Source: Candidatus Woesearchaeota archaeon (GTDB lineage Archaea > Nanobdellota > Nanobdellia > Pacearchaeales > GW2011-AR1). Taken from it: a stretch of DNA of 64,000 nucleotides. Under the pieces are notes generated by a model that worked only from the letters and a program-made list of their open reading frames with translations, did no database searches and had not been told where the DNA came from. The position numbers and the translations under genes were made by a program. This document shows positions 9,304-61,100 of this stretch, one piece after another. Within the stretch, counting starts at the first letter, position 1. Each line of letters begins with the position of its first letter. The stretch is taken from the NCBI GenBank assembly GCA_964355135.1, contig CAYHCG010000006.1, forward strand, positions 9,453 to 73,452, in the 5' to 3' direction.

Positions 9304-9353
9304 CGTTTAAATAAAAAGTAAATGTTTTTAATATAAGGATAATATCCTGTTGT

Positions 9354-14465: not shown

Positions 14466-14502
14466 TATAAAGTTTTAAAAGCTAGGATTTTATCGTGATT
14501 TT

Positions 14503-15057
14503 ATGATACTAGGATTTACCGGGACACTTGTTTCTGGAAAAGGGACTGCATCTAAAATATTAAGAGACGAATACGGTATGCAGATTCTATCGTTTTCCGA
14601 CGAAGTAAGGAAATTTATTAATGAAGACCTTACAAATAGGGGGCCAGTTGATAGAGAAAAGATGCAGTTTTGGGGAAATGAAGTAAGAAGCCAGTATCGG
14701 ATAGATTTCTGGGAGGAACGACTTTTTCCACAGATAGAGAAGAGATATTCTCAAGTGGTTGATAGTTTCAAATACACTGATCAAATTAAAAATTTTATGA
14801 GTAAATATGATCCATTTATATTAATAGCTTTTGATGCTGACCCTGAACTAAGATTTAAATGGATGAGGGAGAGAAATAGACCTGGAGATCCAGAAACTTG
14901 GAACGAATTTCTTGAAGCTGATCGTGTTGATAAGGAAGGATATAAGGAAGGGATCGGACAAAATACAAAGGGATGTATGGAAATAGCGGATTATAAAATA
15001 TATAATAATGGAAGTATAGATGATTTAGCAAGAAAAGTAAGAGAGTTAATATTTTAG
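14503..15057 (+). CDS. P-loop nucleotide-kinase-like protein (dephospho-CoA/dNMP kinase-like)
   Basis: MILGFTGTLVSGKGTAS is Walker-A-like. 184 aa. Paralog of the upstream gene. Confidence 0.5.
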   Translation: MILGFTGTLVSGKGTASKILRDEYGMQILSFSDEVRKFINEDLTNRGPVDREKMQFWGNEVRSQYRIDFWEERLFPQIEKRYSQVVDSFKYTDQIKNFMSKYDPFILIAFDADPELRFKWMRERNRPGDPETWNEFLEADRVDKEGYKEGIGQNTKGCMEIADYKIYNNGSIDDLARKVRELIF

Positions 15058-15099
15058 GAAAATGGCTAAATTTATTAAGCATCACTTTTTTGAGTTGTT

Positions 15100-16293
15100 A
15101 TGTTAATAGGATTAGTTGGTAGGCCTAATACTGGAAAAAGCACATTATTCAAAGCAGCGACTTTGTCTGATATCTTAATTGCAAATTATCCTTTCGCAAC
15201 AATAAAGCCAAACCACGCGATGGGTTACGTTAAGATATTGGATCTTGCGCCTGATTTTGGAAAAGTAAGTAATCCTCGCGAAGGTTTTGTAAAAGACGGA
15301 GAAGGAGTAAAGGGCAAATGGAGATTTGTGCCTTTTGATTTGATTGATGTTGCAGGTTTAGTTGAAGGGGCTAGTGAAGGAAAAGGCTTAGGTAATGAAT
15401 TTCTAAATGATTTATCTGGAGCGAATGCATTTATTCAGGTTGTTGACATGTCCGGAGAGACAGATGCTGAAGGCAAGCCAACTGAAGGCCATTATCCTGG
15501 AAAAGATATCAGTGTGATTGAAAGGGAACTGGATTTGTGGTATAAAGGAATATTAACAAAAGTCTGGAAGACTTTTGCAAGGACTCTAGAGATGAAAAAA
15601 GAGAATTTTGCTGAAGCTATAGCAAAACAATTTTCAGGACTGAAAGTTAGTGCAGATGATGTAAAACATGTTGTTATCTATGCAAAGTTTGACGCAGAGA
15701 AACCAACACTGTGGAATGATGGAGAAGTTTTTAGATTTGCTAGGGAATTACGTAAATTTACAAAACCTATGATTATTGCAGCAAATAAAATGGACAGAGA
15801 AATGTCCAAGGAAAATCTGAAGAGACTTAAAGAGGATTATAATTATCCAATTGTTCCATGTTTTGCAGACGGAGAATTAGCTTTGCGGGAAGCGGACAGA
15901 GCAGGCCTTATCGAATATTTGCCTGGGGATAATGACTTTAAAATTTTGAAACAGTTAAACGAAAAACAAAGTGAAGCGCTAGAAAAAATAAGATTATTTC
16001 TTAAAGAATTTGGAAGTACGGGAGTGCAGGAAATTCTCAATAAAGTAGTATTTGATGTTTTGAAATATATTTCAATATTTCCTGCTGGAGATAAGTTAGC
16101 TGACTCTAAAGGAAATGTTTTACCTGATTGTTTTTTGATGCCCCCTAATTCAACCGCACTCGATTTTGCCTATAAATTACATAGCGATATAGGAAAGAAT
16201 TTTATTAAAGCAATTCATATTAAAAGTAAGAAAGCTGTGGGCAAAGATTATGTTCTACAGCATCGAGACGGGCTAGAAATTATGGTAAAATAA
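15100..16293 (+). CDS. Obg/YchF-family GTPase with C-terminal TGS-like domain
   Basis: G1 GLVGRPNTGKST, G2 YPFATIKPN, G3 DVAGLV, G4 ANKMD. C-terminal VLQHRDGLEIMV is TGS-like. Confidence 0.85.
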   Translation: MLIGLVGRPNTGKSTLFKAATLSDILIANYPFATIKPNHAMGYVKILDLAPDFGKVSNPREGFVKDGEGVKGKWRFVPFDLIDVAGLVEGASEGKGLGNEFLNDLSGANAFIQVVDMSGETDAEGKPTEGHYPGKDISVIERELDLWYKGILTKVWKTFARTLEMKKENFAEAIAKQFSGLKVSADDVKHVVIYAKFDAEKPTLWNDGEVFRFARELRKFTKPMIIAANKMDREMSKENLKRLKEDYNYPIVPCFADGELALREADRAGLIEYLPGDNDFKILKQLNEKQSEALEKIRLFLKEFGSTGVQEILNKVVFDVLKYISIFPAGDKLADSKGNVLPDCFLMPPNSTALDFAYKLHSDIGKNFIKAIHIKSKKAVGKDYVLQHRDGLEIMVK

Positions 16294-41220: not shown

Positions 41221-41311
41221 AAGCTATAGTTTTTCATGTTTTTAATAGAATTTATAACAATATTTAAATACTATAAAACACTACAAAACATAGTAAAAAA
41301 CAATATTGACA

Positions 41312-41551
41312 ATGGTAAAGGCGACAATAGAAATTCCGGAACGAGAAGATAGAATATTGAATATAGTTAAAGGTAAATATGGATTTAAGAATAAAACAGA
41401 AGCTTTGATTTTTATTGTAGCCGATTATGAAAAGAGTTTAGAACCTCAACTTAGACCCCAATATCTGAAGAAACTTAAAAAAATAGACAAGCAAAAAGGC
41501 ATCCCCTTTAACAACATTGAAGAGTTAAGAAATATGATTGAGAAGGATTAA
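41312..41551 (+). CDS. small antitoxin-like protein upstream of the RelE/ParE-like gene
   Basis: 80 aa (MVKATIEIPEREDRILNIVKGKYGF...). Ends 1 nt before the toxin ATG. Confidence 0.5.
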   Translation: MVKATIEIPEREDRILNIVKGKYGFKNKTEALIFIVADYEKSLEPQLRPQYLKKLKKIDKQKGIPFNNIEELRNMIEKD

Positions 41552-41552
41552 A

Positions 41553-41828
41553 ATGTATAATTATGAGATCAAACCCAATCTTGGGGCAATTCTTAAAAAA
41601 TTATCTAAAAAAGACAAAGTTCAATATTTAGCTCTTATGAATAAAATTCAGGAAATTATTAACTCTGGAAATATTGAGCATTATAAAAATCTCAAATATG
41701 ATTTAAGCGCATTCAAAAGGGTTCATGTGATGGGAAGTTTTGTATTGATTTTCAAGTATGATAAGAAAAATAACATTATTTCTTTCGAAGACTATGATCA
41801 TCATGATGTTATTTATGGAAAGAGATGA
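41553..41828 (+). CDS. RelE/ParE-family toxin-like protein
   Basis: About 91 aa. The layout with the KRVHVMGSFVLIFKYDKKNNIISFEDYDHHDVIY C-terminus is typical of RelE/ParE-fold toxins. Confidence 0.6.
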   Translation: MYNYEIKPNLGAILKKLSKKDKVQYLALMNKIQEIINSGNIEHYKNLKYDLSAFKRVHVMGSFVLIFKYDKKNNIISFEDYDHHDVIYGKR

Positions 41829-42320: not shown

Positions 42321-44258
42321 ATGAAGATGATTAATAATAAGGGTTTGAGTAGCGCAGTCATTATTACTCTTAGCGTTTTGCTAGTTATCGGCGCTACGGT
42401 TATAGTTTGGGAATTTATAGGGCCGGTTATAAAACATTTACGAGGGATAAATACTTTTTCTCCGACAGGCAATCTTTCTAGCGAGACTTCGGGAGACTGT
42501 ACATTAACAGAAGCAAACTGGAATAATGATAGTGGCCTAGAGGGAGAAACTCTTGGAATGAGTGTTGAAGGCGAGAATTGTGAAGGCAAAGAAATAACGT
42601 TTAGAGTTTTTGAAGGGGATTCTTCTAATGGGGATGATGATGTCAACCTTGCTCCTTCGCCTGATAAAGCGATATTTATCAATGGAAAAGCCGAGACTGT
42701 GTGGGTAGCTGAGTGGCAGGCTGACTGTAATGGATTATGCAATCCCCCTGAATACTTTTTTGAAGCTTCTCTATCTGAGCAAAAAATAGAAAGCAATTTA
42801 ATTGAAATCGGAAGGACAGAGGGAGACTTGTCCCCTTTAGAAGACTGCAAGACTATAAAGTATCACGGGGATGGAAGAGTGGACATTGTAATATTTGCCG
42901 AGGAGACCATTGCTAACCAATATGCAGAACACATGCTTAGCTTTTCTCCTTTAAATGAAAATAGAGGCGCATTTAACTTTTATTATATTGATGATTATAC
43001 TCCAGATTGTGAAATTTACAAGGGTATTGCTTTGTTATGCAGATCGAAAGAAATGGTAAAGAGAGCTGCATCCTGTCCTAATGATTATATTATGGTTGTT
43101 GAAAGTCATCCTAGCTATGTAAGAAGCTCTGCCTTTATGAATGTGATGAGTATTAATTCTAATTTACCTCCTGCAGAGGTTGTTCAGCATGAATTTGGAC
43201 ATGTTTTTGCTGCATTGGCTGAGGAATATACCCCAGCTATCTTGCCTAAAAACTCTAAAAATTGCGTTGAGAGTTGTGACGAATTTAACGTTAAGGATGG
43301 TTGTTATCAGGGATGTTCAAAAGGAGAGTTTTATAGATCGATAGAAAACGGTGTAATGAGAACATTATCTTCTAATGATTTTGGTATTTTTAACAAAAAA
43401 CTAATTTTAGAAAGATTAGAAGACTCTGTTTCTTCAAGTGTGCCAATAACCGGGGGAGTAATATTGGATCCTAGTGCATGCAATCAAGAAAATTATTATC
43501 TAATTGAGGGAAAATATGACGCCAGTACAAATGAGTTAGACTTGCATAAGGCGACTCTTCAACCTGGCTGCGCGGGTACTAATGGATATGGTGATGTTGA
43601 ATATACTATCATTGAAGACGGAGACGATATAATCGTGGAAGGAAGTTTTAATCCGGTATATATTTTTAGCGATGGAATTGGAGAAGAAGGAGTTAACGGA
43701 GAAATTGAGGGCGATACTTTCGTAAATGAAAAAGAGTTTTACTTGAAAATTCCTAAGCCTGCTACAAATGGAACTAATCTAACTATTTATCCTCCTCAGG
43801 GCGGAGGACCAAGCGGGACATGCTTCTTGCCTGATACGATGATTATTACCCCAAGTGGAAATAAAATGATCAAAGATATTAAAGAAGGAGATGTAGTAGT
43901 AAGTTATAATGAAGCAACTGGCGAGAGGGAAAACAACGCAGTAACAAAAGTATTCAGACATCAAACTGACTCTTACTTAATTATCAATGGTAAATTGAAG
44001 GTGACCGCAGAACATCCTATGATGGTTAATGGAATATGGCAGGAGATTGGCAAGGCTAGAGTAGGAGATGCGTTACAGACTGCAGATGGGCAGCATGTCG
44101 TATACTCGATAGAAGACGTAGAAGAAAGTGTTGAAGTATTCAATTTAGAAGTTGAACGTGATCACACTTATTATGCAGAAGGGTACTTAGCGCATAATAA
44201 GGGGCCTGGAGGGTTAAGCACTCATTTAACTGTAGGTGAGGACGAGTACATTCTTTAA
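42321..44258 (+). CDS. signal-anchored zinc metalloprotease (HEFGHVFAALAEEY, M64-like by eye) with C-terminal Hint domain
   Basis: N-terminal hydrophobic AVIITLSVLLVIGATVIVW. HExxH plus EEY. C-terminal CFLPDT...TAEHP...YLAHN. Confidence 0.85.
   Translation: MKMINNKGLSSAVIITLSVLLVIGATVIVWEFIGPVIKHLRGINTFSPTGNLSSETSGDCTLTEANWNNDSGLEGETLGMSVEGENCEGKEITFRVFEGDSSNGDDDVNLAPSPDKAIFINGKAETVWVAEWQADCNGLCNPPEYFFEASLSEQKIESNLIEIGRTEGDLSPLEDCKTIKYHGDGRVDIVIFAEETIANQYAEHMLSFSPLNENRGAFNFYYIDDYTPDCEIYKGIALLCRSKEMVKRAASCPNDYIMVVESHPSYVRSSAFMNVMSINSNLPPAEVVQHEFGHVFAALAEEYTPAILPKNSKNCVESCDEFNVKDGCYQGCSKGEFYRSIENGVMRTLSSNDFGIFNKKLILERLEDSVSSSVPITGGVILDPSACNQENYYLIEGKYDASTNELDLHKATLQPGCAGTNGYGDVEYTIIEDGDDIIVEGSFNPVYIFSDGIGEEGVNGEIEGDTFVNEKEFYLKIPKPATNGTNLTIYPPQGGGPSGTCFLPDTMIITPSGNKMIKDIKEGDVVVSYNEATGERENNAVTKVFRHQTDSYLIINGKLKVTAEHPMMVNGIWQEIGKARVGDALQTADGQHVVYSIEDVEESVEVFNLEVERDHTYYAEGYLAHNKGPGGLSTHLTVGEDEYIL
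43821..44198 (+). other. Hint (intein/Hedgehog-type) domain, 126 aa, followed by a 19-aa tail
   Basis: Cys1 in GT|CFLPDTMIITP (block A), KVTAEHPMMV (block B TxxH), VFNLEVERDHTYYAEGYLAHN (blocks F/G, terminal HN). The +1 residue is Lys. Confidence 0.8.
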
Positions 44259-45997: not shown

Positions 45998-47416
45998 ATG
46001 AAAAAGGGGACTATTATTTTATTTATATCTCTATTGTTTATTTTCTCTATTTTCAATGTTAGCGCAGGGATATTTGATTCTATAACTGGGAGAGCAACAA
46101 CACAGCACACCAATGTTTCTGTGACTATAAGTGGCGCTCCATCTTTGGGAAGTATTGAAAATCTAATTCTCGCATGTGAAAGTTCCTCTTTGTCTTATAA
46201 ATTTAATGCAACCGACAGTCCTTCAGAAATACTAAGCTTTTCTCTAAGCAGCTCTGATCCATTTTTTGTGCAGACATTTTCTTCAACAACTAATTCTAGC
46301 AATGTAATCTATACGGGAGAATTATTTTCGACTACACTAGTCAAAAGCCAGGCAGCTCTGAATTATTCTAGAACGATTTTTGTTACTGATGGAACTTTCA
46401 GCGATAGCAAGGCGATCAATATTAGCGTTATTGAAATTAACAATGCTCCTTCGATGACTGCTATAGCGACTCAGAGCGTTAATGTGAGCGGGGGGAGCGT
46501 TAATTTCTATTATAAGGTAAACGTTAGCGATACAGAGAATGGGAATCAGGATTCAGGAAATATATCATTTAATTCAACTTTTACCTCTGGCGCAGAACTA
46601 TTCAATATAAGTGCTGCAGGAATAATTAATAAAACTTTTACTAGCGCAGATGTTGGAAGTTATTCTATACGGGTTTGCGCAACAGACTTGGGAATTCCTA
46701 GTTCACGAAGACATCCAAATATAACTTATTGCGGTCAGGGAGATGGAACTAATAGTTCGGATTGTGAGAGTTTTACTTTGACCATTAGCCAGACTTCTTC
46801 CAGTTCTTCACCTAGCTCGAGTTCTGCTGGCGGAAGTAGTAGCGGAGGCGGAGGAATTTCCTGTTTATCAAAGTGGGGTTGTAAAGAATGGGGCACTTGC
46901 CAAAATGCCTTTGCGGCTTTGCAAAGTGGTATTTTAACCGGAGAGGATTATAGAATAATAGACGCATATTGCATTCTTAATGGATGGGAAGACGAAGAAA
47001 GGTGTGGATTTACAGAAAGGACATGCATCGATGTCAATTCTTGCAATAACGATCAGAGTAAACCCCTTGAAGTTGGAGCATGCTTTTATACACAAGACCC
47101 CTCATGCACAGACGGAATAAAGAACTGTCATTCGGAACAGTGCGAGTTTTTAGTCGATTGTGGTGGCCCTTGTGGAGCTTGCGCAACTTGTTCTGATGCC
47201 GTGCGAAATCAGGGAGAGGAAGGGATAGATTGCGGAGGACCATGTCCCGATCTTTGTATTGCTTTTGCTTCTCCGGGTGACTCTATTTTTGAACCTTTTA
47301 AGAATTTTGACAAAATGAGAGTTGCAGTCATTGGATTAGTCTTGAGCATATTTTCTGCTTTGTTTATAGTTCTAGCCATAAAACTTGCTAGAGTTATGAA
47401 GTTAAGCAGAGGTTAA
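45998..47416 (+). CDS. secreted protein with cadherin-like repeats, Ser-rich linker, Cys-rich CGGPC modules and C-terminal TM
   Basis: Signal peptide ...FNVSAG. VIEINNAPSMTAI (cadherin-like DxNDxAP position). SSSSSPSSSSAGGSSSGGGG. DCGGPCGAC and DCGGPCPDLC. C-terminus VAVIGLVLSIFSALFIVLAIKLARV. Confidence 0.7.
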   Translation: MKKGTIILFISLLFIFSIFNVSAGIFDSITGRATTQHTNVSVTISGAPSLGSIENLILACESSSLSYKFNATDSPSEILSFSLSSSDPFFVQTFSSTTNSSNVIYTGELFSTTLVKSQAALNYSRTIFVTDGTFSDSKAINISVIEINNAPSMTAIATQSVNVSGGSVNFYYKVNVSDTENGNQDSGNISFNSTFTSGAELFNISAAGIINKTFTSADVGSYSIRVCATDLGIPSSRRHPNITYCGQGDGTNSSDCESFTLTISQTSSSSSPSSSSAGGSSSGGGGISCLSKWGCKEWGTCQNAFAALQSGILTGEDYRIIDAYCILNGWEDEERCGFTERTCIDVNSCNNDQSKPLEVGACFYTQDPSCTDGIKNCHSEQCEFLVDCGGPCGACATCSDAVRNQGEEGIDCGGPCPDLCIAFASPGDSIFEPFKNFDKMRVAVIGLVLSIFSALFIVLAIKLARVMKLSRG

Positions 47417-47736
47417 TTAATTGTTTGTATATAAAGTATATCTACTTTATAGAACAATAGTTATTTTATACGAAATGAATTCGTCTAAAATAAGAATTCA
47501 TGAGAAACTTGCTTTCGAATGAATTACTATCTGTGCTTAAGCACCTATGCGCGAATAGCGCATTAACTTGTTGTATATAAAGTATATCTACTTTATAGGA
47601 ATTTAGCTATTTTGTTTGAAGCATCAAGATGCAATACATCTTGAACGAAGTGAATTCGTATAAAATAAGAATTTATTCAAAATTTACTTTTGAACTAAAT
47701 TACTAAATGTGCGTAAGCACTTTGTCTAACAAGGCA
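47414..47736. repeat. tandemly duplicated intergenic unit (~147 and ~170 nt) rich in hairpins
   Basis: TGTATATAAAGTATATCTACTTTATAG is identical at 47425-47451 and 47571-47597, and each unit ends GCATTAA(A)C. Hairpins are GTGCTTAAGCAC / GTGCGTAAGCAC, ATGCGC-GAATA-GCGCAT, and in unit 2 TCAAGATG-CAATA-CATCTTGA. Confidence 0.7.
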
Positions 47737-50634
47737 TTAAACAATATCTGAACCTGGAGGAAGAGGCCCCTTGTTATGAACTAAAAAGTCTTCTGCGAAG
47801 TAATTGTGGTTGTTTTCAACTTGTAGATTGAATACTTCTACACTGTTTTTTATTTGCTTTATGGAAAATATTGTTTCTTCTCCATTGTTCAATGTTCTGA
47901 TATTATCTCCTATATTTGCTGAACCTATTTCTTGCCATTGATTATTGACAAATATAGGATGATTTGGAGTAACTTTGAGTTTTCCATTAATAATTAAATA
48001 AGATTCGGTCTGATGTTTGAATACTTTAGTAACTTTGTTACTTTCCATCTTATTGCTTACTTCATTATAACTTACTACTACGTCTCCTTCTTTAATGTCT
48101 TTTATCATTGCTTTTCCATTTTCTGTGGAAATCATAGTATCGGGCAAGAAACAAGCTCCCGAAGTAGGAGGATTTCTTACACAAGTGCCCCATTGACAAG
48201 ATGAATTACAAATCTTAGTTCCTGCTGCTCCATAACCTGCATCGCAATTCGTTTTCTTTCCTATAGGTTCACATTGTTCTCCCGCATCAATTATTCCATT
48301 GTTGCAACCTGCTGGGAAAGTAATTACTAATTGAGGTGTTGGATAAGTTGCATAATTCCCATCTGCGGGATGATAATTAATTTGTAAAATTGCATCCGTC
48401 CCAGGAACAAGGCCTGTAATATCATAACCTCCTCTAATGCCTAATACTGTCCAGGCGTTACCTCCTCTATTTATCCAGGATAATTCGGATAATGCCAAAT
48501 TGTTTATTCCACTAGAACCTTGGAAGATCGGAACTGAAATTGGGGATAGGGTTGTAAATTTGCTATAATCGCTCATTCCAAAGTTTGGAGGGGCCAACAG
48601 ATCAATTTTTGCAAGCTTTATATAATTTAAGCTGGAAGGTGAAGCGTTTGCTGACATAACAGATTGATGTATTTCTACTTTTGCAGATTGTATATTAATT
48701 GTTGTTGGGATAAGAGAAGTTTTAAATGGTAAGATGATTCTAGTAATTTCATTGTTATTGGTGAGAGTTTGTGCGTTTCTTAATTGCATGAGGGGTAAAG
48801 AACTATATTGATTGACATATGATCCTGCGGATAATGCTCTTAAGTTATCGAAACCTCCATTGTTTCCATTTATAGATTCGGCTCTGATGAACCCATCTAA
48901 GGAAACTGAAGGGATTTTTATTGTACAAGTTGTAGAGGTACATACAGTATTAATTTTACAATCATTTTTACAATAATCGGCATTGTTAGTATTGCTATCA
49001 TCACATTGCTCGCTCAAATAATTGAAGTATCCGTCTCCGCAAGTGTTATTGACACAATTATTACGGCAATTATCCCCGTTATTTGTGTTGCCATCATCAC
49101 ATTGTTCTCCTATTTCTAAAACTCCATTAGAGCAAGATGCTGGAGTCTGACCTGTACAATCTGAATTACATTGAAGAGGGTCGCCATTTAAAGAAAGGCC
49201 ATCATCACAAATTTCTTGACCATTTATTTTTCCATCACCGCAGGATTGTATTGGATTACAAGTATGGATGTTAGTGCATTGTAAGTTGCAATCTGCTGTC
49301 CCCAAGTAGCCTTGTTGATTATAACAAGAAGTACTTCCCCCATCACAAAACTCATTTAAATCTAGACGTCCATTTGAGCATGAGGGCCCTCTACACAAAT
49401 CTCCCAAGATATTGCAATCGCCAAAACCACACGGATCATTACTACATGCAACTAAATCTGAATTATAGTCTTCACATTTGTTTTTATTTAAACATGTGTT
49501 TGGATTGTTAGTAATAACACAATTATTTGAACAAGCATCATTATCAATTTGATTTCCATCATCACATTCTTCATATCCATAATTAAGAATTCCTCCTAAA
49601 CCTTTGCCATTAGGAGTTTGCAAGACTGAATCTCCGCAATAGGTTAAGGCGCAGGATTCATTACATTGATCAAAGTTAGCATTAACTCCAGAATCATCAC
49701 ATTCTTCTGGAGTTTCTAAAACTCCATTGCCACAACCAGGAGATAAAGTATAAACTACCTTTAAATTAGGATGAAAAGAGGTTTGAGGGTAATTTGAAGA
49801 TGTGAAACTAAACATTATATCTTCTCTATTATCCGATTGAGTTCCTCCTAATAGGTCTCTGCCAGTTATTAATCCTATATTTGTAAATCCGATTTTATTA
49901 ATCTTTGTTAGACCAAAATCGTTAAATGGAAGATCTAAAAATTGTCCAATATATCCATCTAATAATATTCTATCTGTCGAGTCTATTATTTCTGAATTAA
50001 ATTTATTAAAGTCTGAATTTGTTAGTGATTGGGGATTTGATGGATTGGCTTCTACAAGGGTTATAAAATTATTTGATTCGGTAGAATAATAATAGTGGAA
50101 TGTTGGTTTAATAGATAACGTGGATGATTGAATTAATGCATTTTTTGGAATTAGTTTTGTGTCAAATGATAAAAGAGATCTATATAATTCGGATGATATT
50201 GCAGAAGAAGAAAATATTCTTGATTCTGCATTTAATGAAGTACTCATTTTTGATACAAGATTTGAAGTTGGAGAATTTCTTAAATCGTTAAAATTATTAG
50301 TTAACATAGATTTTTGGAAAGTTGAATCTTCAGGGAGGGAATTTAAATTTGATTCGCAATGGTTTTCGGTTGGATTAAAGGTGTCAGTGGGTGCGCATTT
50401 AATGTCTCCAGAGATGTTTACTATTAGATAATTTTCATTTGCTTCCAGAGTTGTGATTGTAATTCCATTTGCAGAGTCTGTGAATGTTTGTTCCAGAAGA
50501 AGAGCTGCGGTGAGTAAATTTCCTCCGATTTGTGTTGGCAGGGTGAGATCAAGAAGTTGTGTATCTCCACCATCAACGTCTTTTTTCCATTGTATTCGAG
50601 CACCCTCATAACTGTAAGGAAGGTAGTCTCCCAT
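47737..50634 (-). CDS. C-terminal portion (965 aa) of a frameshift-split surface protein: Cys-rich CGDG..EECDDGN repeats plus terminal Hint domain
   Basis: At least five repeats of the type CGNGVLETPEECDDSG...C / CGDGKINGQEICDDG...C (Myxococcus-type Cys-rich repeat pattern). C-terminal Hint domain. The frame stays open upstream of the listed ATG to 50679. Confidence 0.75.
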   Translation of the reverse strand: MGDYLPYSYEGARIQWKKDVDGGDTQLLDLTLPTQIGGNLLTAALLLEQTFTDSANGITITTLEANENYLIVNISGDIKCAPTDTFNPTENHCESNLNSLPEDSTFQKSMLTNNFNDLRNSPTSNLVSKMSTSLNAESRIFSSSAISSELYRSLLSFDTKLIPKNALIQSSTLSIKPTFHYYYSTESNNFITLVEANPSNPQSLTNSDFNKFNSEIIDSTDRILLDGYIGQFLDLPFNDFGLTKINKIGFTNIGLITGRDLLGGTQSDNREDIMFSFTSSNYPQTSFHPNLKVVYTLSPGCGNGVLETPEECDDSGVNANFDQCNESCALTYCGDSVLQTPNGKGLGGILNYGYEECDDGNQIDNDACSNNCVITNNPNTCLNKNKCEDYNSDLVACSNDPCGFGDCNILGDLCRGPSCSNGRLDLNEFCDGGSTSCYNQQGYLGTADCNLQCTNIHTCNPIQSCGDGKINGQEICDDGLSLNGDPLQCNSDCTGQTPASCSNGVLEIGEQCDDGNTNNGDNCRNNCVNNTCGDGYFNYLSEQCDDSNTNNADYCKNDCKINTVCTSTTCTIKIPSVSLDGFIRAESINGNNGGFDNLRALSAGSYVNQYSSLPLMQLRNAQTLTNNNEITRIILPFKTSLIPTTINIQSAKVEIHQSVMSANASPSSLNYIKLAKIDLLAPPNFGMSDYSKFTTLSPISVPIFQGSSGINNLALSELSWINRGGNAWTVLGIRGGYDITGLVPGTDAILQINYHPADGNYATYPTPQLVITFPAGCNNGIIDAGEQCEPIGKKTNCDAGYGAAGTKICNSSCQWGTCVRNPPTSGACFLPDTMISTENGKAMIKDIKEGDVVVSYNEVSNKMESNKVTKVFKHQTESYLIINGKLKVTPNHPIFVNNQWQEIGSANIGDNIRTLNNGEETIFSIKQIKNSVEVFNLQVENNHNYFAEDFLVHNKGPLPPGSDIV
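47773..48153 (-). other. Hint domain, 127 aa, followed by an 11-aa tail
   Basis: GA|CFLPDTMISTE, KVTPNHPIFV, VFNLQVENNHNYFAEDFLVHN. The +1 residue is Lys (KGPLPPGSDIV). Close paralog of 43821..44198 at the DNA level too. Confidence 0.8.
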
Positions 50635-51821
50635 TGGAGGATGAGTGAGGGGAGGGCTGAAGCATCTGTTCCAATCGGCCTACGATATTCTATGCTATAA
50701 AATGATCCGTCTTGGAGGGGTATTTTGATCATCTTTGTTCCATTTGAAATTTCTATAGGTTCTATAGTATAATTCCCTTGTTTTGGATTATAATTCTGAA
50801 TTTGACTTTCTTTCAACCAACCAATGCTCTCTTTATGTAAAACATTAAAATGGCCTTTATTGCCCGCAACCCCCATTACATCTAATGAATCGCCATAAAC
50901 TGATGATGAACAAGGGCCTTGTGAAGGGAGATTATTATTACACCACCATCCGTTTGCATGCTGTAAACCAAGATTATGCCCAAATTCATGTGCAAGAACT
51001 CCATTATCTATATTTTCTGGCTTCATAACTAATGAAGTGGATAACCAAATTTTTGTATCTTGGAGATTAAACTCAGGAATTCCGATATTAGCAATCCCTT
51101 CTAAATTATTTCCACAAATTCCTTCTTCGAAGATGATTATTAATCTTGTGTAGGATTCTATGTTTATATTATTGTTCTGGAAGAACTGGGAATTTCTCAT
51201 ATCAGTTGGATTACAATAAATTTCATTTGCACTAGCCTGCGTCCAATCTAAAACCTCTCCAGTTAGCCATGCCCTATTATAAGAAACTTCTTTTATCCAT
51301 GAATTTAGAGAGTCAGGGTTTGTTAAATCGAATATATTTGCTATGATTTGTTCACGAGTAAGTGGGGGGGCAGATGTTCTAAAAATGGGGACAATTAGGG
51401 TTTTTTGTTCACCCAGATTAAAGTTTCCCCTGTTGTTGACTGAAGCAACATTAGCTTCATTTGATAGTATTTTTAGATAACCTGATTGACTTATAGAAAT
51501 TATTCTTAATCCTTGATCTACCTCTCCAAAAATTTCAATGTCTTTTCCAGAAATTAATTCTTTTGGTATTTTTGGGTAGTTGAAATTATCAATTATTTCA
51601 TATTTGAAGATACCTGAATGGATATAGTATTTAATTGTGTAAGTAAGGTCGATATTTTCTACAATTACAACTTCTGATTTACCATTTAGAGTCATAGGAG
51701 ATAAAGATATTGATGGTTCTTGCAAGAAATTGTTGACTATTGGAGCTAAGATAAATATTAATATGCCGATAAAAATTAGAATGGACAAGTAAGCGATTCT
51801 GCTGTTCACTCTTTTTTTCAT
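50424..51821 (-). CDS. N-terminal portion of the same split gene: signal-anchored metzincin-type zinc metalloprotease
   Basis: N-terminal IAYLSILIFIGILIFILAPIV. HEFGHNLGLQH fits HExxHxxGxxH exactly. Sensible sequence stops near ...IEYRRPIGTDASALPS (~50650). The remaining ~70 codons look out of frame. Confidence 0.7.
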   Translation of the reverse strand: MKKRVNSRIAYLSILIFIGILIFILAPIVNNFLQEPSISLSPMTLNGKSEVVIVENIDLTYTIKYYIHSGIFKYEIIDNFNYPKIPKELISGKDIEIFGEVDQGLRIISISQSGYLKILSNEANVASVNNRGNFNLGEQKTLIVPIFRTSAPPLTREQIIANIFDLTNPDSLNSWIKEVSYNRAWLTGEVLDWTQASANEIYCNPTDMRNSQFFQNNNINIESYTRLIIIFEEGICGNNLEGIANIGIPEFNLQDTKIWLSTSLVMKPENIDNGVLAHEFGHNLGLQHANGWWCNNNLPSQGPCSSSVYGDSLDVMGVAGNKGHFNVLHKESIGWLKESQIQNYNPKQGNYTIEPIEISNGTKMIKIPLQDGSFYSIEYRRPIGTDASALPSLILQWETTFLTVMRVLEYNGKKTLMVEIHNFLISPCQHKSEEIYSPQLFFWNKHSQTLQMELQSQLWKQMKII

Positions 51822-52103: not shown

Positions 52104-55100
52104 GTGGTTCATAAGAAGTACAAATGGAAAAATGGCAAGAAGTATGGTCCTTATTATTATGAAAATAAAAGGGTTGGAGATAAAGTTGTTACGACATATT
52201 TAGGAAGACATCACAAATTAGAGAGTAAAAATGAAGATAAGAATGTAGGAGAACTGACTGTAACAAGTAAGAAAAATTACTTTTTTATCTTGGGGATAAT
52301 ATTAATTATTGGATTTTCTTTTGTCTTTTATTTTATTGGCAAAGGGGTCTTTTTTTCACCTGATTTTAAAGCGATTGAGATTAATTTAGATAAGGAAAAT
52401 TATAATGCGGGAGAACAGCTTAAGGGAAATGTATTATTAAATTTAAGACAAGGAGAGTTGATTCCTATTGATTCTAAAGTGATGATTACTTTTGAGGGGA
52501 TTGAAAAGGAGATAAGTGTAGGGGAAAATGTCGGAGTTGATAAAAATAAGGGAACTTATTATTTAACTAATGGTGAATTAATTGGAAGTGGGGAAGGATA
52601 TGGAATTGCAGGAACAAAAGAGATTTATCCTGAAATCGAGTTTGAGTTAATTTTAACTGAAACTAATGGGGGAGAGGTTAATGCAGATAGTGAAGAAAAT
52701 GTTAGTGATGGTGTGATTGGGGGTGGGGGAGATGGTGAAAGTAGTGGGGGTGGGAATGAAGGACCAGCGATAGAGGAAAATACTGGAGAAACTCTACCTG
52801 AGAATGAAGAAGGTCAAATTCCAATAGTTAGTGAAGAGACTCCTCAAACTCAGACGGAACCGGAAGAAGCCCCTACAGGAGAGGTAACACTGGAAAGTGT
52901 ACAACCTGAAACGGGGAATAGTGAAACAGTTCAAGAGACTACACAAGAAGCGACTGTTTCAGATACTGCAGAAAGCAGTTCTGATAATGGGGGAGATAGT
53001 TCACCCAGTGGAGAAAGCAGTGGGGGAACAGAAAGTGGAGGAGGAGAAGTCAATGGGGGAGAAGTAAGTTTATCTCCAAATGAAGAAATCATATCTGGAA
53101 AAGTTAGAAAGGGAGAAGACTTTATTTATGAAATAAAAGAAGGGCAACTTGTAAAGGTAAAAGAGGGAAGTGTAAAAGTAAATGGTGAAAGTGTTGAAGA
53201 TAATCTAGTGGAGTTGAAAATTGAGGATGGGAAGGTAATTGTCTCTACAACATATGCTGAGATTGAAGAGGGTTTTGGAGAGGAATTTTTGGGAGATGAG
53301 TTTTTAGAAATTAGGATAAATATTGATGAACTAGGATTTATTGTAAATGAAGAAGGAAGTTTGGATGTAGGTTTAATTATAGGAGAAAGAGAGGTCTTGA
53401 AAACAACGAAGGAAATAATACTCAGAGAAGTAAACGAGAGTATTATTAATCAGAGTGAATTAATTGAGACACCAATTAATGAGGCCATAATAAATCAGAC
53501 CATAGTTAATGAAACCATTTTGAATGAGACTATAATTGAGACAAATGTTAGTAATTTAACTGGATATGGTGCAATATTAGGGCAACCGGTTAAATGGGTT
53601 AAGAGAGTTGAAGTATTGACTGGGGAAACTGCAGTAAAATTTGATGTTCCAAAGAGTGCTGAAAAATTAATTGCTAAGAAACGTGATAATAGGGGAAGAG
53701 AAGTGGAAATAGAAGATTTTGAAAAGGGTGAAATAAAGAAATTTGAATTTGAGGGTGAAGTGGATTCTGGGAAGAAGGATGATGTAAAAAGTGAACTAAA
53801 TGATTCAATTATTAATGAGACAATTGTTGAAGAAAACAAAGATGATAATATTTTGGATGAAAATAAGAATATTGGAACAGGGAATGAAGAGAATGAAAAT
53901 GTAGGAATTGGAAATGGTGAAAATATTGATTCTATTGTTGAACCTGAAATATCTTTATCTCCAGAGATAGTTGAGGGTAAAGAAATTAATGTTAATGTTC
54001 CTATAAATGCTTTAGAAGTTGTTTTGGAATATGAGACGCCCGCTCCTTATGCAATTGAGGAAGAGACTTCTAAGGGCAAGATTGTAAATGTTATTGGACC
54101 TAACGATGTACATTATGAAAATGTTTTGATATTTACAAATTTAAATGAAGGTTTGAATATAATTGATTCATCTAAAATTAGGATAATCTGGAAAGAAACA
54201 GGACAGGTGATAAATGTATTAAATGCAAACGATACGAATAATAATAGTATAATAGATTATATCCAGTTTGTTGCTCCGAGCTTGAGTAATCAGACTTTTG
54301 AGATTATTGTGATTACGAAAGCTGAACATCTTGATCAAAATAGAAGTTTCATTAATGATATTTTTGATAGTGTTAAAGCTCAAGATGGAATTTGGAGTGA
54401 GATAATAAATGATGGAGAGTATGTAAGAGTAACTTTTGAAATTCCTCTAGATAAAACAAGAGATATTACCTTATGGCCTAGAACTGTAAGTGGAATTTCG
54501 AGAGTTGAAGTATATGAAATTGATGGGAACACAACTGTTGCTTCATTTGAAAGTTTGAATGATAATGAATATAATAAAGTATATTTGACAGGACTTGCAG
54601 ATGGTGTAAGTCAGGATACTTTTGATTTGAAAGTTATGGGGGGAAGTGTGGAACTGGATCATGTGATTGATCCGCAGCCTAGCGGAGCTACAAGATCTTG
54701 CAATATGAATGGGTCTGCTTCAAGTACTGGAGTAAAATGTTTAAATGGAGCTGCTGGAAAGAATGAAGATTGGACTAACGGGACTATTGATTCTTGTATA
54801 GACAAAACTAGCACACCAACAGTATATGTCAGGGATATGTGGGTAAATGACTCAAATATTAAATCAGGAGATAGTGTCAATGTTAGTTGTAGTTTTGTGG
54901 GTGGAGGTTCAACAAGATTGGCATCGTTTTTTTATAACGATGGAGTAAGTGGATGGATTAATACAAGCTCTTTTCTCTATGGGACTGGATCTGGTAATAT
55001 TAATATTACCCATCCTATTAAAATTGCAAATAAATCAGGAATTCATTATTTTAGATGCTGGATATCCAGCGATAGTACTTCTTGTAATACTACTACTCCT

Positions 55101-58100
55101 TGCTGTGGAAATTCAATGGCAGATAATGATGATTTTTCATTTAGTGCATGCGGAACTGCAGGCGTCGCTACCTCCTCACTTAGTAATTGTTGTCCTGGAT
55201 TGATTGCTATTCATAATGGAACAAATTTAGTTTGTGGGACTGAAAGTGATTGTTCAAGCTACCCGAAAAGATATTGTCAGAATGCGACCGGAGACTATGG
55301 AATATGTGTTAATTATAATGCAACGGGATCGCTAATAACTGGAGTTTGCGATACTGTTGCTCCTGTTGCTTCGAATTCAAGTTCTGAAGCATTTTTATCT
55401 TGTGTTGCGGATAAATGGAGGAATTGTGATAACACTTTAATAGGGATAGGATTTTCTAATGATGGTATTTGTGTCGATAATGATGTATGTTCAATTTTAA
55501 GTGTTGGGGGGAAGAATGATACTGATAAGCAACCCGATACTTTAGTTGCGAATATAAGTTGTACAGACACAGACTATGGGTGCTTTAATTCATCCTATGA
55601 TGGAAGAACTTGTGTCGGAATTCCAATAACTCCCGTATCTTCTCCAGAACCTTCAAAAATTGGAATAATTGCTGGAAATAAAAGCGGGGGGGCTGGAGGA
55701 AATGGTGATGATGCTTCGCCTTGTTGTTATCAAGATACCTTCTTTGTTTTTGATGGAACAGGGGATCATATCTATGGTAGAAATGAAAGTGATTCTACAC
55801 CATATGAAGGATGTGGATATAATTTTCCTAAAGATGGATTAACTTGTGTGAATTATAGGCAATACGCTAATTGGGACGGTATAAATGATACAGATATTGG
55901 AGTTTCTGTAAACTCTACTTCTTGTGAATTGGGACTTGTAAGTAAAAACAGTTCTGGGAATTATTTGAATACATGTTCTGGGAATGAAAATGGAACATGT
56001 GATACTGATATAACTCTTAGCGGATATGTTCCTGATGGGACATGTTATAATACAAATGGTCAGGGAGTACAATGTGAGACAGATGACGCAAATGGCTCTA
56101 CGACAACAACAAATTGTATTTATAATGGGGAAATACTTCCTCATGGACAGACTGGGAATTATACTGCTGGGGGAAATGCGAGTATTTTATGTGCGAACAG
56201 TAATTTGTATTATTGTGTATATCAAGCTGATTTATCTCCGACTGTGGGGATAAATAGAACTAATAATTGTGATCCTGTTCCTGGAACTAATTTAATTTGT
56301 CAGAATGCGGGAGTTACTAAAGGGCTATGGCTTACTACGATATTTGATGGGGCTTCTTGTACTTGCAGTAAGGGAACTGAATGCAGCAGCGGCTTATGTG
56401 AAGAATTATCTGGACAAGGATATTGTAGGGGTAGTTGTAATTTTGCAGGCAATATGTGTTCTAATAATAGTCAGAGTTATTTGGTTGGGGGTACATGCAC
56501 GGACTTTGATGGATGTATTATGGGGCCTATTTATAAAAGCACTTCTCTTGTTTTACGTCCAGGGTGTACTAGTGGGAATGCAGGCGTGAATATATGTGAT
56601 AATAACGGAACTGGAGGATTTATTGTGGAAGGAATATGTACTAATAATGGTAGTGGATTTGGAGTTTGTGACACAAATGATACTTACTTTGATGATGAAG
56701 CAGGAATTTATTATGCAAATGTTCAAGTGAATATGACTAATTATACTTCCGAATTGAATAATGGGGGAGGATTCGGGGATAGTTGTGATAATAATGTCAG
56801 TAATGGGCTTTATAGTGCAGTTGGGATGGCTGTAAGTAATCTTGGAAATATGACCTTGACCTGCAATGCATTTAGCAGAACGGTTATGATAAATGCGACA
56901 AATTCATTATATGTTGGGAATTGCAGCCTTGGTGGTGGAGAGAGGTGCGATAATTCTACGGGACTCTTGGGGGGCAGTATAAGTGATTCATTTTTTGCTA
57001 ATGGAATATGTGTAAATAATTCAGATGTTGCTCATTGTTCAACAACTACTGCCGCAAGAAATAATTATACAAATGGGTCTTTATATGGGGCTAGTTTAAT
57101 TTATTCATCTAGTTGCACTTTTTTGGCAAATAATTCTCAATGTGATTTAGACGTAAGTGATTCATATTTTAATTTTACCAATAATACTGGAACAACTTCG
57201 GGAGTTTGTTATTCTGGAAGTTGTGTTCAATGCGGGCAATTTGAGATTGCGCCTACTCAATGTTCTGGCGGAATAGATGACGATTGTGATGGGTTAATTG
57301 ATAGTAATGATCCTAATTGTCAGCCCCCAATTGTAACTATAAATTTCCCTACTAATAGAACTTATTTTTCGAGTAATTTGCATCTGAGCTTTAATGTTTC
57401 ATTAAACATAGATACAGGTAGCGTTAGATATAGTTTAGATGGGGGAATAAATAACAAAACAATGTATAATTCAAGTGGGGGGATGATTGGGCGATATTTC
57501 AATGCGACAAATAGTTCTATTGCGGACGGTAATTATACTTTCAGAGTGTACGCTAACGACAGTTGGGGCAACAAGAACGAAACAGCGAAAGTTAATTTTA
57601 CATTTGAGAATACTGATTTGACGGGATGCAAGAATTTGACTTATGCAGGGCAGACTTACAGACTTATTGGAGATATTCAAACAACTTCAACATGCTTTAA
57701 TATTCTGGCCAATAACATTACTTTAGATGGAAATGGAATGAGCATTGTTTATGGGAATCAGTCTGGAGGTACATATTATGGTGTTACTGCGAACAATTTT
57801 AATGATTTAATAATAAAGAATTTGAGCGTAAGTAGGGGAACTTCTGCAGGGTCTAATGATTTAAGATATGGGATCTACTTAATTAGGTCGACAAATTATT
57901 TAGTTAAAGATATCAAAGCCAATAATAATTATTATGGGATTTATTTAAATGACCCTTCTTTAGGGTTCAGTTCTTACTCGAATTTAAACAACATCATTGC
58001 AAATAATAATTCAATTGGTATTAATGTCCGGAAAATACATTCACTTAACTTTAATAATATTGTCGCGAATAATAATAGCAATAGGGCGATTTATGTTCAG

Positions 58101-61100
58101 GATGCATCTTACAATATTTTTAATAATTTAATTGCAAATTATAATAATATAAGTGTAGAGTTCCGTGAACTCAGCCAGTATTCACAATTTAACACCATTA
58201 ACACTTTTGATTTCAATTATAACAAGAAGGGGATTGTTTTGGTTTCAAGTTATGGTAATACAATATCGAATGGGAGAATAAACTCTACTTCAGGAAATGC
58301 TGTAGAGGTATTTACGTCTAGTGTTTCTTTTGCTAATTACTTAAGTAACGTAGCTATTTCAAATACTAACTTTAGTTTTTATGACTTAAAGGTTTCAGTA
58401 CCTGATATAGGGGAGCTTTCTCTCAATAATATGCCTCATATCGGGAATTACAGTTTTGATGCAGGAGGCAACCTTATTACTATAAATAATTCATTTGGTG
58501 AAATTAAATTCCTGAATGGAATAACTGGATCTGGAACTAATTTAACTGCAGATGTGCGGATTGGGAATAACTCTGCAACAGTAATGAGTAATATAAATCC
58601 TGGGCTTAATAGAAGTGCAAATATTACTTTATATGGAATTGGAGAAAGAGGATTTGTCAGTCCAGTATTATTGAGAGACAGCCTTAACTGTGGGAATAGT
58701 TGTAACAACTTTACGGCTTTGAATGCTTCAGAAGTTAGATTTAATGTAACAGGATGGACTGATTATTCCATAGGGGAAGAGGTTTACCTTTCAGATTGTG
58801 GAGTTTTGAACGTAGCTAATAGATATTACAGGCTATTAAATAATATCACTACGACGGGAACTTGCTTTATCATCAATGCCACAAATGTTACTTTAGATGG
58901 ACAGGGTAAAAAGATAATTTATGGAGACCAACTAGGTTCTTCGTTTTATGGGGTCATTTCAAATGGGTATAATAATACTATTGTTAAGAATGTTACCATA
59001 AGCAGAGGCAGTCTTTCTCTTTCTAGTAATACGAGATATGGAATTTATTATTTGAATAATATTAATGGTAGAATAGAATATGTTAATACAAGTTCTAATC
59101 TTCGCGGAATATCTCTTTCAACTAGCTCAAATAATTCTATTCTTAATAATATTGCAAATAGTAATGCCTTACGTGGAATTTTGATTTCTGGAGGATCTAA
59201 TAATTCCCTTATAAATAATACTGTAAATAATAATGGCCAGGTAGGAATAGAAACTGCTTCGAGGAGCAAATTTATAAATAATACTGTAAATAATCATTCT
59301 TTATATGGAATTTACGTAACCGGAAGTTATAACAGTTTAATTTTGAATACTATAAATAATTCTAATTTAGGCATTTATATTTTGGGGGGTAATAATAATA
59401 TTACTAATAACACCCTGATTTTCAATAATGATGGAATAACTATTGGTGCTTCATCGTCTAATAATAGGCTAGAGAATAATTTATTTGTTTCAAATAATTT
59501 TGGAATTAGGTTAATTTCAGATTCGGTTACAAATATGATTACTGGAGGAATAATAAATAACTCTAGAAATAATGCAATAGATATAGGTCCATCTTCAAAC
59601 GACAATAATTTTACTAATATTAGTATTCTAAGCACGAACAAGTCATTTTATGATATAAGATTTAATAGCGCAGGTATAAATGGAAATTATCTAATTGATA
59701 TGCCTCACATTGGGAATTATAGTTTTGCTGGTGCGGGAGGAACGGTTTACTTCAAAAATTCTCAATATGGAGAAATAAGATTTTTGAGTGCGATTAATGG
59801 AAGCGGGACGAATTTGAGTAACGATGTGAGGATTGGAAATAATTCTGTGACTGTGTTGAGCAATAATAATCCTGGATTGAATAGAAGTGCGGATATTACA
59901 CTTTATGGAATAGGTAACAGGGGCTTTACCAATCCAACCATGCTAAGAAATGGAGTGAACTGTGGAAATATTTGTCGCAATTTTACGGCATTGAATGCAC
60001 CAGAGGTTAGATTTAATGTTACTTCCTGGACGAATTATTCAATTGGAAATAGCACTAATTCTGCACCTAATGATCCTTTGACGAAAATAAATTCAACTGA
60101 TGGAAGCAATAGGACAAAACAGGACTTACATTGCTTTGATAGATTGCTTGATGTAGATAATAACACGATGAATGTGAGCGTTGTTTGGTATAATAATTCG
60201 ATATTTAAATTCCAATTTGATTATAATAATAGTTATATGAATGGAACACTGTTTAATGCAACACTTGGACATTTTAATACAACAAAAGGAGAAAACTGGA
60301 GCTGTGCCTTGAGATTGTACGATGGACAACTTTATTCTGCTTGGAGGAATTCTACGAATTTGACGATACTAAATTCTTTGCCTAATGCTACGTTACTTTT
60401 ACCTACAAATAATAATTATACCATAGACAGGACTCCGGTATTCAACTGGAGTATTTTAGATGACGATGGAGATGTTGTAAGTTCACACTTTAATTTGAGT
60501 TGTTATTCGGGATGCTCATTAGATAACCGGAGCGTTATGGTTGGAGGAGGGCAGAATGCTTCTTATGAAATAGTGGGAGATTTACAATATCTAGTTGACG
60601 ATACTTATTATTATAACTGGAGTGTTAGAGCAAATGACAGTGTTGGTTTTGGAAACTGGGCTAGCGACTATAGACTCAATATACAGTCTTATGTCGCTAT
60701 CAATTTAACTAGGGATTATATCAATTTTGGAAGCATTACAATTGGGACTAATGATACAACGGACGACTCTCCGCTGCCATTTTTGCTTAAAAATATAGGG
60801 AACGTATTTGTAAACGTGAGTATAAATGCCTCTGATTTATGGATTAGCGCAGTAAATCCTACTCCTTATTATCAATTTAAAGTTGATAATTATGCTGGTC
60901 AAGCTGGAGCATTCAACTGGGCTGCTTCCACTACATCGTTTACGAGCGTGCCTAACCGCACAATAGTGCCTAGAATCATGAGCGGCTTTAATTATACGGA
61001 TACTAGAAATACTGCAGAGATTGATGTCAATATTACTGTTCCTCCAGGAGAAGGAGCAGGAGTGAAAAGCTCAATAATAACTTTTGTGGCAAGCAGAACA

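Follow-up and report, generated by a model that had tools for sequence, protein, structure and literature searches.

The window analysed here is a stretch of 64,000 nucleotides from a Candidatus Woesearchaeota archaeon (NCBI GenBank assembly GCA_964355135.1, contig CAYHCG010000006.1, positions 9,453 to 73,452 of the forward strand). On its minus strand, positions 51821 to 47737 encode a predicted exported metalloprotease whose far end is formed by a Hint domain. A preliminary description had read this region as one gene, but the list of open reading frames (ORFs) and a three-frame translation resolve it into two ORFs that lie in different frames, overlap by 211 nt and are related by a -1 shift from ORF1 to ORF2, so that a -1 change at approximately 50664–50632 is needed to join them. 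With a probability of roughly 0.7, the locus represents a frameshift-disrupted gene for an exported DPANN (Woesearchaeota/Pacearchaeota-like) multidomain protein of ~1360 aa, comprising a protease and a C-terminal, presumably self-processing Hint cassette, and most likely a recent pseudogene.

Two reading frames and the frame break

The elements that define the break are as follows.

ORF1, 50424–51821, minus strand: 465 aa, with a signal anchor, the metalloprotease catalytic region and ~70 out-of-frame C-terminal residues past the frameshift.
ORF2, 47737–50634, minus strand: 965 aa from the first ATG, with the rest of the protease beta region, the DNRLRE-like domains, the Cys-rich repeats, the Hint domain and the tail.
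Frame-break zone, 50632–50664, minus strand: net loss of 1 nt relative to orthologues, within a C-rich variable loop (GCTTCAGCCCTCCCCTCACTCATCCTCCAATGG).
A_AAA_AAG heptamer, 50580–50586, minus strand: in the ORF1 frame and inside the overlap, where a -1 slip would fuse ORF1 to ORF2.

Homology to two distant relatives (P0002 and P0003) and two close ones (P0080 and L008) follows the ORF1 frame until RRPIGTD (50685–50665) and the ORF2 frame from GDYLPYSYEGARIQW (approximately position 50631 on), and in all four the homologues of ORF1 carry on in the ORF2 frame past the break. As the homology switches frame between these two landmarks, the window copy has lost one net nucleotide at 50664–50632. 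The distant homologues (818 and 1080 aa, respectively), which cover 92–93 % of a junction-spanning query, are uninterrupted across the junction (...YSIEYRRPIGxD...GGDSQLLD...TFTDSKNGISIT...). The close orthologues extend the comparison to the whole protein: P0080 (1386 aa, from groundwater metagenomes) shares 56 % identity with the reconstructed 1361-aa protein over residues 1–1351, while L008 (CAYHPN010000027.1, a Candidatus Woesearchaeota metagenome-assembled genome) contains an open frame of ~1391 aa from Met that is 59 % identical over residues 1–1360, starts with a signal anchor nearly identical to that of the window and ends in the tail KGPLPPGLDIQ. Both genes lie within islands syntenic with the window, the shared order being a giant surface protein, the protease–Hint gene, 470-, 553- and M64-like genes, a toxin–antitoxin pair, two small genes and a Laminin_G giant. 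Since intact single-ORF orthologues occur in two relatives, the protease–Hint architecture is genuine and the window copy a frameshifted version of it.

An assembly error is an unlikely source of the frameshift. The DNA of the whole gene is 100 % identical in three other assemblies from the 0.1 µm fraction of Hainich well H52 (ENA ERZ1292616 and ERZ1292617, and the Logan assembly of ERR3858112), and a slightly different fourth assembly (ERZ1292618, locus L086) keeps the same two ORFs despite three clustered substitutions nearby. Compared with the window, L086 (5x coverage) carries 50627 A>C, 50624 A>C and 50617 T>G, 5–47 nt downstream of the frameshift zone, and only three further differences across 11.6 kb, all near the contig end. 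The clustered substitutions may represent either a minor haplotype or a low-coverage error, and hypermutation of the diversity-generating retroelement type is unsupported, given that A and T are both changed on the same strand, in a loop of the protease region.

The split itself could be functional, either through programmed -1 frameshifting or transcriptional slippage at A_AAA_AAG (50586–50580) or through the synthesis of two separate proteins from ORF1 and ORF2, although this is considered improbable. The break is carried by all four assemblies, ORF2 is uninterrupted over 965 codons, and a perfect in-frame A_AAA_AAG is expected only ~0.024 times by chance in the 211-nt overlap; nevertheless, the expectation for any canonical in-frame slippery heptamer in such an overlap rises to ~0.45. 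Programmed -1 frameshifting is further characterized by a downstream structure and by conservation of the two frames in relatives, both of which are absent here: no stable or stimulatory RNA structure was found downstream of the heptamer (fold z=-0.93), while P0080 and L008 are single ORFs with neither the heptamer nor Lys-Lys codons at the matching site. Moreover, a slip at the heptamer would swap ~20 residues that match the orthologues in the other frame. The lack of a downstream structure, the orthologues without heptamer or frameshift, and the replacement of ~20 homologous residues together indicate that the heptamer is probably fortuitous. A stand-alone ORF2 product, which gene callers shorten to 856 aa by placing the start later, would also be unusual in that it has no signal peptide, though it is built of disulfide-rich extracellular repeats.

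On the preferred reading, a disrupted gene, the window copy of the large protease gene is most probably a pseudogene of recent origin, with no more than low-level expression through slippage. The protease half would stop at 50424, and the Hint-bearing half would lack a signal peptide. Because the large gene is split by the frameshift, its Hint domain and the protease are probably not produced as one polypeptide.

Domain organization of the reconstructed protein

Once the frame is restored, the predicted order is a signal anchor, an M6/M11-like protease, a DNRLRE-like beta domain, six Cys-rich repeats, a second beta domain, a seventh repeat, the Hint domain and a tail, all on the minus strand.

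51741–51794, minus strand: N-terminal hydrophobic segment AYLSILIFIGILIFILAP, residues 10–27, after MKKRVNSRI; Sec-type signal peptide or signal anchor, as read from the translation.
50958–50990, minus strand: zinc motif HEFGHNLGLQH (HExxHxxGxxH), recognized by the motif and an M6 profile match.
49735–50316, minus strand: beta-rich domain copy 1, DNRLRE-like, residues 503–696, with an SDNRED motif; weak NF033679 match (E=8e-5).
48958–49734, minus strand: six Cys-rich acidic repeats (C-G-x-G ... E-x-C-D-D-G-N ... C-x3-C), residues 697–955; TIGR02232, DUF4215 and a regular-expression map.
48307–48885, minus strand: beta-rich domain copy 2, residues 980–1172, from local alignment with copy 1.
48181–48306, minus strand: seventh, degenerate Cys-rich repeat (CNNGIIDAGEQCEP...C), directly before the Hint domain.
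47773–48153, minus strand: Hint domain, 127 aa, residues 1224–1350; Cys1 at 48153–48151, block B TPNH at 47970–47959, terminal His-Asn at 47778–47773.
47740–47772, minus strand: C-flank KGPLPPGSDIV, 11 aa, with Lys at +1 followed by a Pro/Gly-rich sequence; stop codon at 47739–47737.

Most of what the preliminary description had listed within this region is borne out: the signal anchor (MKKRVNSRIAYLSILIFIGILIFILAP) and HEFGHNLGLQH (50990–50958) are present, the boundaries proposed for the Hint domain are exact (Cys1 codon at 48153, terminal Asn codon at 47775–47773, then KGP), and the repeats, counted there as at least five, number six in tandem (49734–48958) plus a seventh before the Hint domain.

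The protease shares with the M6 (immune inhibitor A) and M11 (gametolysin) families of clan MA(M) the HExxHxxGxxH motif and a conserved downstream D-[VI]-M-G. It reaches 23.6 bits with Pfam Peptidase_M6 (PF05547, cutoff 22), across 35 residues of the zinc-site region only, whereas the TIGR03296 M6 domain profile (E=2e-10, 41 bits) stays well below its cutoff of 110.8; matches to PDB entries are marginal (E≥0.03). Its distant homologues carry M11 (PF05548), and many of them have Ig-like or cadherin-like C-terminal domains. In contrast to the families proper, only the zinc-site region of the window protease scores, and most relatives have no Hint domain.

The two beta-rich domains are diverged duplicates of one domain (local alignment score 124), of which copy 1 also follows the protease in the Hint-less P0002 and P0003, and copy 2 is conserved in P0080, L008 and P0087. 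The Cys-rich repeats match TIGR02232 (E=3e-17, four stretches) and DUF4215 (E=1.8e-7), and similar repeats precede the Hint domain in P0086, P0087 and P0082. The C-flank is conserved as well (KGPLPPGLDIQ in L008, KGVLPPGTDIQ in L007), the tails of orthologues being 11–14 aa long.

Family, residues and fold of the Hint domain

Among Pfam families, PF07591 (PT-HINT) gives the best match: ORF2 reaches 40.2 bits (E=5e-10) and a second Hint-bearing protein of the window, an M64-like protease, 54.4 bits (E=2e-14), both above the cutoff of 27.7. The Intein_splicing family (PF14890, cutoff 35.8) is reached by ORF2 (37.9) but not by the M64–Hint protein (27.8), while Pfam Hint (PF01079) stays at 16.3 bits, below its cutoff of 29.7. 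The nearest sequences with solved structures are the bacterial intein-like (BIL) domain of Clostridium thermocellum (PDB 2LWY, E=6e-14) and BIL2 of the Tetrahymena BUBL locus (6Y75/6TMM, E=2e-12). An AlphaFold (AF2) model based on a 15-sequence alignment reached pLDDT 95.3 and pTM 0.88, a model from a 3-sequence alignment (pLDDT 56.6) having been set aside. The top Foldseek matches of the accepted model are the same BIL structures, 6Y75, 6TMM and 2LWY (template-modelling (TM) score 0.90–0.92, E down to 8e-12), followed by mini-inteins and then by the hedgehog Hog domain (TM 0.78), in agreement with the horseshoe-shaped beta fold of Hint domains. The catalytic set is complete, namely Cys1, block-B T-P-N-H, block-F/G ...NHNYFAEDFLVHN and the terminal His-Asn, after which comes Lys. 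A-type BILs are defined by this combination, and the domain is an A-type BIL/Pfam PT-HINT domain, an ordinary member of a catalogued family. It was rejected as a canonical intein, since it occupies a terminal position, carries Lys at +1 in place of Cys, Ser or Thr and, as a 127-aa mini-domain, has no endonuclease.

The A-type BILs, as characterized by Amitai et al. 2003 and Dassa et al. 2004 (summarized in PMC5874633), have no nucleophile in the C'-flank and self-cleave at either end, with splicing possible by an alternative route. The C. thermocellum representative is the best sequence match among solved structures and superposes with TM 0.90 and a root-mean-square deviation of 1.6 Å; the window Hint shares with this type Cys1, block-B TxxH, a terminal His-Asn followed by a non-nucleophilic residue, and residence in variable extracellular rather than conserved housekeeping proteins. 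It differs in belonging to a DPANN archaeon, in lying at the extreme C-terminus with an 11-aa Pro-rich flank, and in the frequency of Lys at +1, which follows 76 % of the HN-ending Hints among the 150 closest relatives. Hedgehog/Hog (PDB 1AT0) offers a further parallel, with a secreted cargo followed by a C-terminal Hint domain, cleavage of an X-Cys junction via a thioester and a shared fold; unlike it, the window Hint has no sterol- or adduct-recognition region and ends in the His-Asn typical of inteins and BILs, the identity being 13 % and the PF01079 score below threshold.

Two Hint domains in one window and the shuffling of a module

The second Hint domain of the window (Hint B; the one described above is referred to as Hint A) lies at 43821–44198 on the plus strand, at the C-terminus of the M64-like protease gene 42321–44258, and is likewise followed by KGP at +1, within a 19-aa tail. 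The two proteases, 3.5 kb apart, both end in homologous Hint domains with intact catalytic residues, and no further Hint domain was found in the window. The similarity greatly exceeds chance (tblastn E=3e-57), and the identical peptide runs pointed out earlier (MIKDIKEGDVVVSYNE, SYLIINGKLKVT and SVEVFNL), together with the shared +1 KGP, reappear in the protein alignment. The modules are nevertheless not near-identical, as had been stated: 85 of 133 aa (64 %) and 273 of 396 nt (69 %) agree, the first, second and third codon positions are 74, 80 and 53 % identical, and no exact DNA match is longer than 22 nt. The differences fall mostly at third codon positions, a sign of purifying selection, and the two Hints are diverged paralogues. 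A recent duplication or gene conversion was rejected in view of the overall DNA identity, the third-position identity, the short longest run and the clustering of Hint B with the Hints of other cargos. The initial observation of two different proteases with the same processing module thus holds in that the Hints are homologous and the fusion is a single ORF in two relatives of the large gene, but not in that the modules have diverged and the window copy is split.

The phylogeny proposed earlier as a test for module shuffling speaks for a portable module. Within a tight Hint clade of 57–86 % mutual identity, Hint A is nearest to P0082 and P0080 (68–69 %), whereas Hint B groups, in a neighbour-joining tree and by identity, with P0087, P0082 and P0086, whose cargos are DUF4215/DUF1554 proteins. 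The M64-like orthologue of L004 (g545) is 49 % identical over residues 4–489, has no Hint domain and ends in ...GGCLDHIDLDDRQLPV; that of L008 is also Hint-less and ends in ...DLKNGDLTETIV, and both occupy the same position in syntenic islands. The large-protease relatives P0002, P0003 and P0004 are Hint-less as well. These Hint-less M64-like orthologues and large-protease relatives show that the Hint domain is a portable C-terminal cassette that has been shuffled, and on grounds of parsimony the lineage of the window is the one in which the M64-like gene gained it; under this scenario, the cassette would have been added to the M64-like protease in that lineage only.

The wider Hint family

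A word-index search with the Hint domain alone returned a single protein, so that an exhaustive profile search was required, which yielded 24,675 cluster representatives at E≤1e-3, 257 of them at E≤1e-30; Hints with E≤1e-10 number roughly 6,500. Residues and architectures were counted in the 150 closest relatives, which contain 330 Hint domains. Cys1 is present in 322 of these and the HN end in 308, and the block-B T and H are invariant. The residue that follows HN is Lys in 233 of the 308 domains (76 %), and Cys, Ser or Thr in only 19. A layout of cargo, one or more Hints and a short tail occurs in 41 of the 150 proteins, and a short leader followed by 2–5 tandem Hints and a C-terminal region of ~110–1060 aa in 37, the remainder being mixed. 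The cargos of the C-terminal type consist of extracellular modules, namely DUF4215, PKD, Big_9, cadherin-like, subtilase, pilin-like N_methyl/TadE, Laminin_G and Metallophos domains, and these proteins finish in short tails with much Pro and Gly.

In a scan of GTDB species genomes, the motif was found in Woese-, Pace- and Nanoarchaeota, Patescibacteria, Omnitrophota, Thermoplasmatota and Methanosarcinales, as well as in cyanobacteria, Legionella, Bdellovibrionales, Polyangiaceae and Planctomycetes; in one Woesearchaeota genome it occurs on three separate contigs. A conserved partner or acceptor gene beside the Hint genes was not detected across 79 genomic loci. The dedicated maturation or attachment mechanism that the preliminary description had suggested for this island is not borne out, given that Hints of this type are found at the ends of many unrelated extracellular proteins, both on other contigs and across numerous phyla, that the M64-like orthologues of two syntenic islands are Hint-less and that the 79 loci share no partner gene. 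The module appears to be specific to neither the island nor the protease, and to act alone. Literature searches returned no work on Hint domains of surface proteins in DPANN archaea, and we know of no biochemical test of the HN-K short-tail sub-architecture.

Several other layouts were noted. The closest relatives (P0061, P0062, P0089, P0104, P0065 and P0058) often have 2–10 back-to-back Hints joined by HN-K-G(1-4)-C, and a recurrent class combines a ~25-aa leader and 3–5 Hints with a C-terminal region that contains Tim44-like domains. On another contig of the genome that contains L008 (L026, CAYHPN010000004.1, 3955–7137), an open frame of 1060 aa includes a further Hint of this type, after which ~250 aa with transmembrane segments remain; in such a cargo–Hint–membrane stub arrangement, self-cleavage would shed the cargo from the membrane.

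Proposed mechanism and alternative functions

What the data show are the ORF structure and orthology, the domain identities with their catalytic residues and fold, and how the module is distributed, gained and lost; the chemistry and biological purpose proposed here are modelled on established Hint chemistry. The most likely function of the domain would be autonomous self-cleavage. In the intact orthologues, after export and folding, Cys1 would undergo an N-to-S acyl shift, aided by the block-B Thr and His, which would convert the bond between cargo and Hint into a thioester. The terminal Asn, helped by the penultimate His, would cyclize and thereby sever the K-G-P... tail, and hydrolysis of the thioester by water would free the mature protease from the Hint domain. 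Alternatively, the amine of the +1 Lys, whether already liberated or still adjacent, may attack the thioester, in which case the short tail would be spliced onto the cargo (A-type BIL 'splicing'). Such a course would suit a C-terminal domain that removes itself from exported proteins. The reaction would need neither a partner protein nor ATP, and maturation of the protease by self-cleavage is plausible.

Several points weigh against the interpretation of the locus as a disrupted gene for a self-processing protease. The assignment of the protease to M6/M11 is weak, as the score comes from the zinc-site region alone and TIGR03296 lies far under its cutoff, and it is hard to see what a cargo would gain from a terminal Hint whose sole effect is its own removal; the M64-like orthologues do without one. 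In the HN-K Hint subfamily, cleavage, splicing and transfer would leave the same sequence signature. With respect to the frameshift, the four assemblies derive from one well and one groundwater population at 5–8x coverage, which confirms the sequence but not its fixation across the species; ORF2 stays open for its whole length in a genome of 35 % GC, and the perfect A_AAA_AAG in the ORF1 frame within the overlap leaves complete inactivity of the window copy unproven.

In place of simple release, the Hint domain might act as a covalent attachment or ligation device, in which the cargo thioester is captured by an amine or hydroxyl. This nucleophile might be the epsilon-amine of the +1 Lys, with isopeptide 'splicing' as the outcome, or be supplied by an envelope lipid or by a Lys on a protein of the S-layer or the host surface. 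The protease would then be tethered or tagged, by analogy with the cholesterol transfer of hedgehog or the Lys isopeptides formed by Tetrahymena BIL2. Such a role is speculative and seems doubtful. It would suit the extracellular cargos of episymbiotic lineages and the prevalence of Lys at +1, which includes every junction of many tandem arrays, but this Lys could equally serve Asn cyclization or act as a linker. The closest solved structure, BIL2 of the T. thermophila BUBL locus (29–31 % identity, and the second-best sequence match), sets a precedent, as it is reported to transfer its N-flank to a Lys amine and to form isopeptides independently of ATP (Chiarini et al. 2021, described in PMC8616854). 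However, BIL2 comes from an intracellular eukaryotic protein in which it has ubiquitin-like neighbours and Met at +1, and its acceptor Lys lies in a folded ubiquitin-like domain that has no counterpart here; the window Hint is bordered instead by a protease cargo and a short tail. Moreover, merely 11 Pro-rich residues follow the window Hint, leaving no region for sterol or adduct recognition, no conserved acceptor or partner gene was found at the 79 loci, and the Hint-less M64-like orthologues suggest that attachment is dispensable for function. A broader form of the proposal, in which the HN-K Hints of surface proteins from DPANN, the candidate phyla radiation (CPR), Omnitrophota and other lineages would be ATP-independent ligases whose Cys1 thioester is resolved by the +1 Lys, which would give an isopeptide-linked product, or by a Lys of the symbiont's own envelope or of the host cell, is more doubtful still; if true, it would amount to a sortase-like or hedgehog-like attachment chemistry that tethers proteases and adhesins in organisms that live attached to other cells.

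There is little reason to favour the view that the Hint domain is a selfish or neutral, intein-like passenger that moves by recombination from one surface-protein gene to the 3' end of another and cuts itself out so as not to harm the host protein, with no benefit to the cargo. The patchy occurrence among orthologous cargos, a Hint tree that departs from that of the cargo, tandem arrays of up to 9–10 Hints in relatives and the conservation of all residues needed for self-removal would fit this view. On the other hand, the 127-aa mini-Hint is accompanied by no homing endonuclease or other mobility function, the family is specifically tied to exported proteins, and a C-terminal appendage would be harmless without excision, yet its catalytic residues are strongly conserved.

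PT-HINT domains of polymorphic toxin systems have been proposed to be autoproteolytic releasing modules in secreted multidomain proteins (Zhang et al. 2012, PMC3482391), and both window Hints exceed the PF07591 gathering threshold (40.2 and 54.4 versus 27.7 bits); in contrast to these systems, the window locus has no toxin domain, immunity gene or cassettes, and the released part would be a large N-terminal enzyme. A degenerate toxin locus, in which a lost C-terminal toxin was formerly released and the short tail is its remnant, would explain why the best Pfam family is 'Pretoxin HINT' but is very improbable, because the 11-aa tail is conserved in length and sequence (KGPLPPGSDIV, KGPLPPGLDIQ and KGVLPPGTDIQ), the short-tail layout recurs in 41 of the 150 closest relatives, no toxin/immunity cassettes lie downstream, where the next gene is convergent beyond a 320-nt spacer, and the cargos are enzymes and adhesin-like domains rather than RHS or filamentous stalks.

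Surroundings of the locus

The convergent gene downstream of the Hint gene encodes 472 aa. The spacer that separates them (47416–47736) contains two direct copies of a unit of ~150–175 nt (47416–47519 and 47562–47694, ~80 % identical), each with palindromes (TATAAAGTATATCTACTTTATA; GTGCTTAAGCAC / GTGCGTAAGCAC), which could be terminators, a small RNA or a miniature repeat element. Giant ORFs lie nearby on the plus strand at 20411–29299, 34825–39702 and 52104–61103 (2962, 1625 and 2999 aa); a Pfam scan of the last two identified Laminin_G_3 in the 1625-aa protein and no domain in the 2999-aa protein. As a whole, this 30-kb stretch resembles the surface-protein islands that are typical of episymbiotic DPANN archaea. 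Across the syntenic islands, gene order is kept while small defence or addiction modules are swapped: a ribbon-helix-helix (RHH)/RelE-like pair at 41306–41828 of the window is replaced by PIN-VapB at the same position in the relative L004, where AbiEii and AAA_14/DUF4143 genes also flank the protease–Hint gene (L004 modules at 8458–9909, 14212–15501 and 20598–21268). Elsewhere in the window, a tRNA match at 12286–12407 on the minus strand, not called by ARAGORN, spans 122 nt, and the tRNA gene therefore contains an intron. Taken with the Woesearchaeota/Pacearchaeota relatives, this intron points to an archaeal (DPANN) source of the window.

Concluding remarks

The annotation of the locus is corrected to that of a frameshifted copy of a real protease–Hint gene, in place of an intact giant fusion. 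Its module belongs to a widespread known family, and the locus offers an example of domain shuffling rather than a new mechanism. The syntenic comparison provides a clean natural case in which a Hint cassette is present on one protease orthologue and missing from two others. More broadly, Hint domains with a full catalytic set and a short Pro-rich tail form the C-terminus of many proteins exported by ultra-small episymbiotic archaea and bacteria and, if active, such small (127 aa), toxin-free and cofactor-free Hints could serve as self-cleaving tags.

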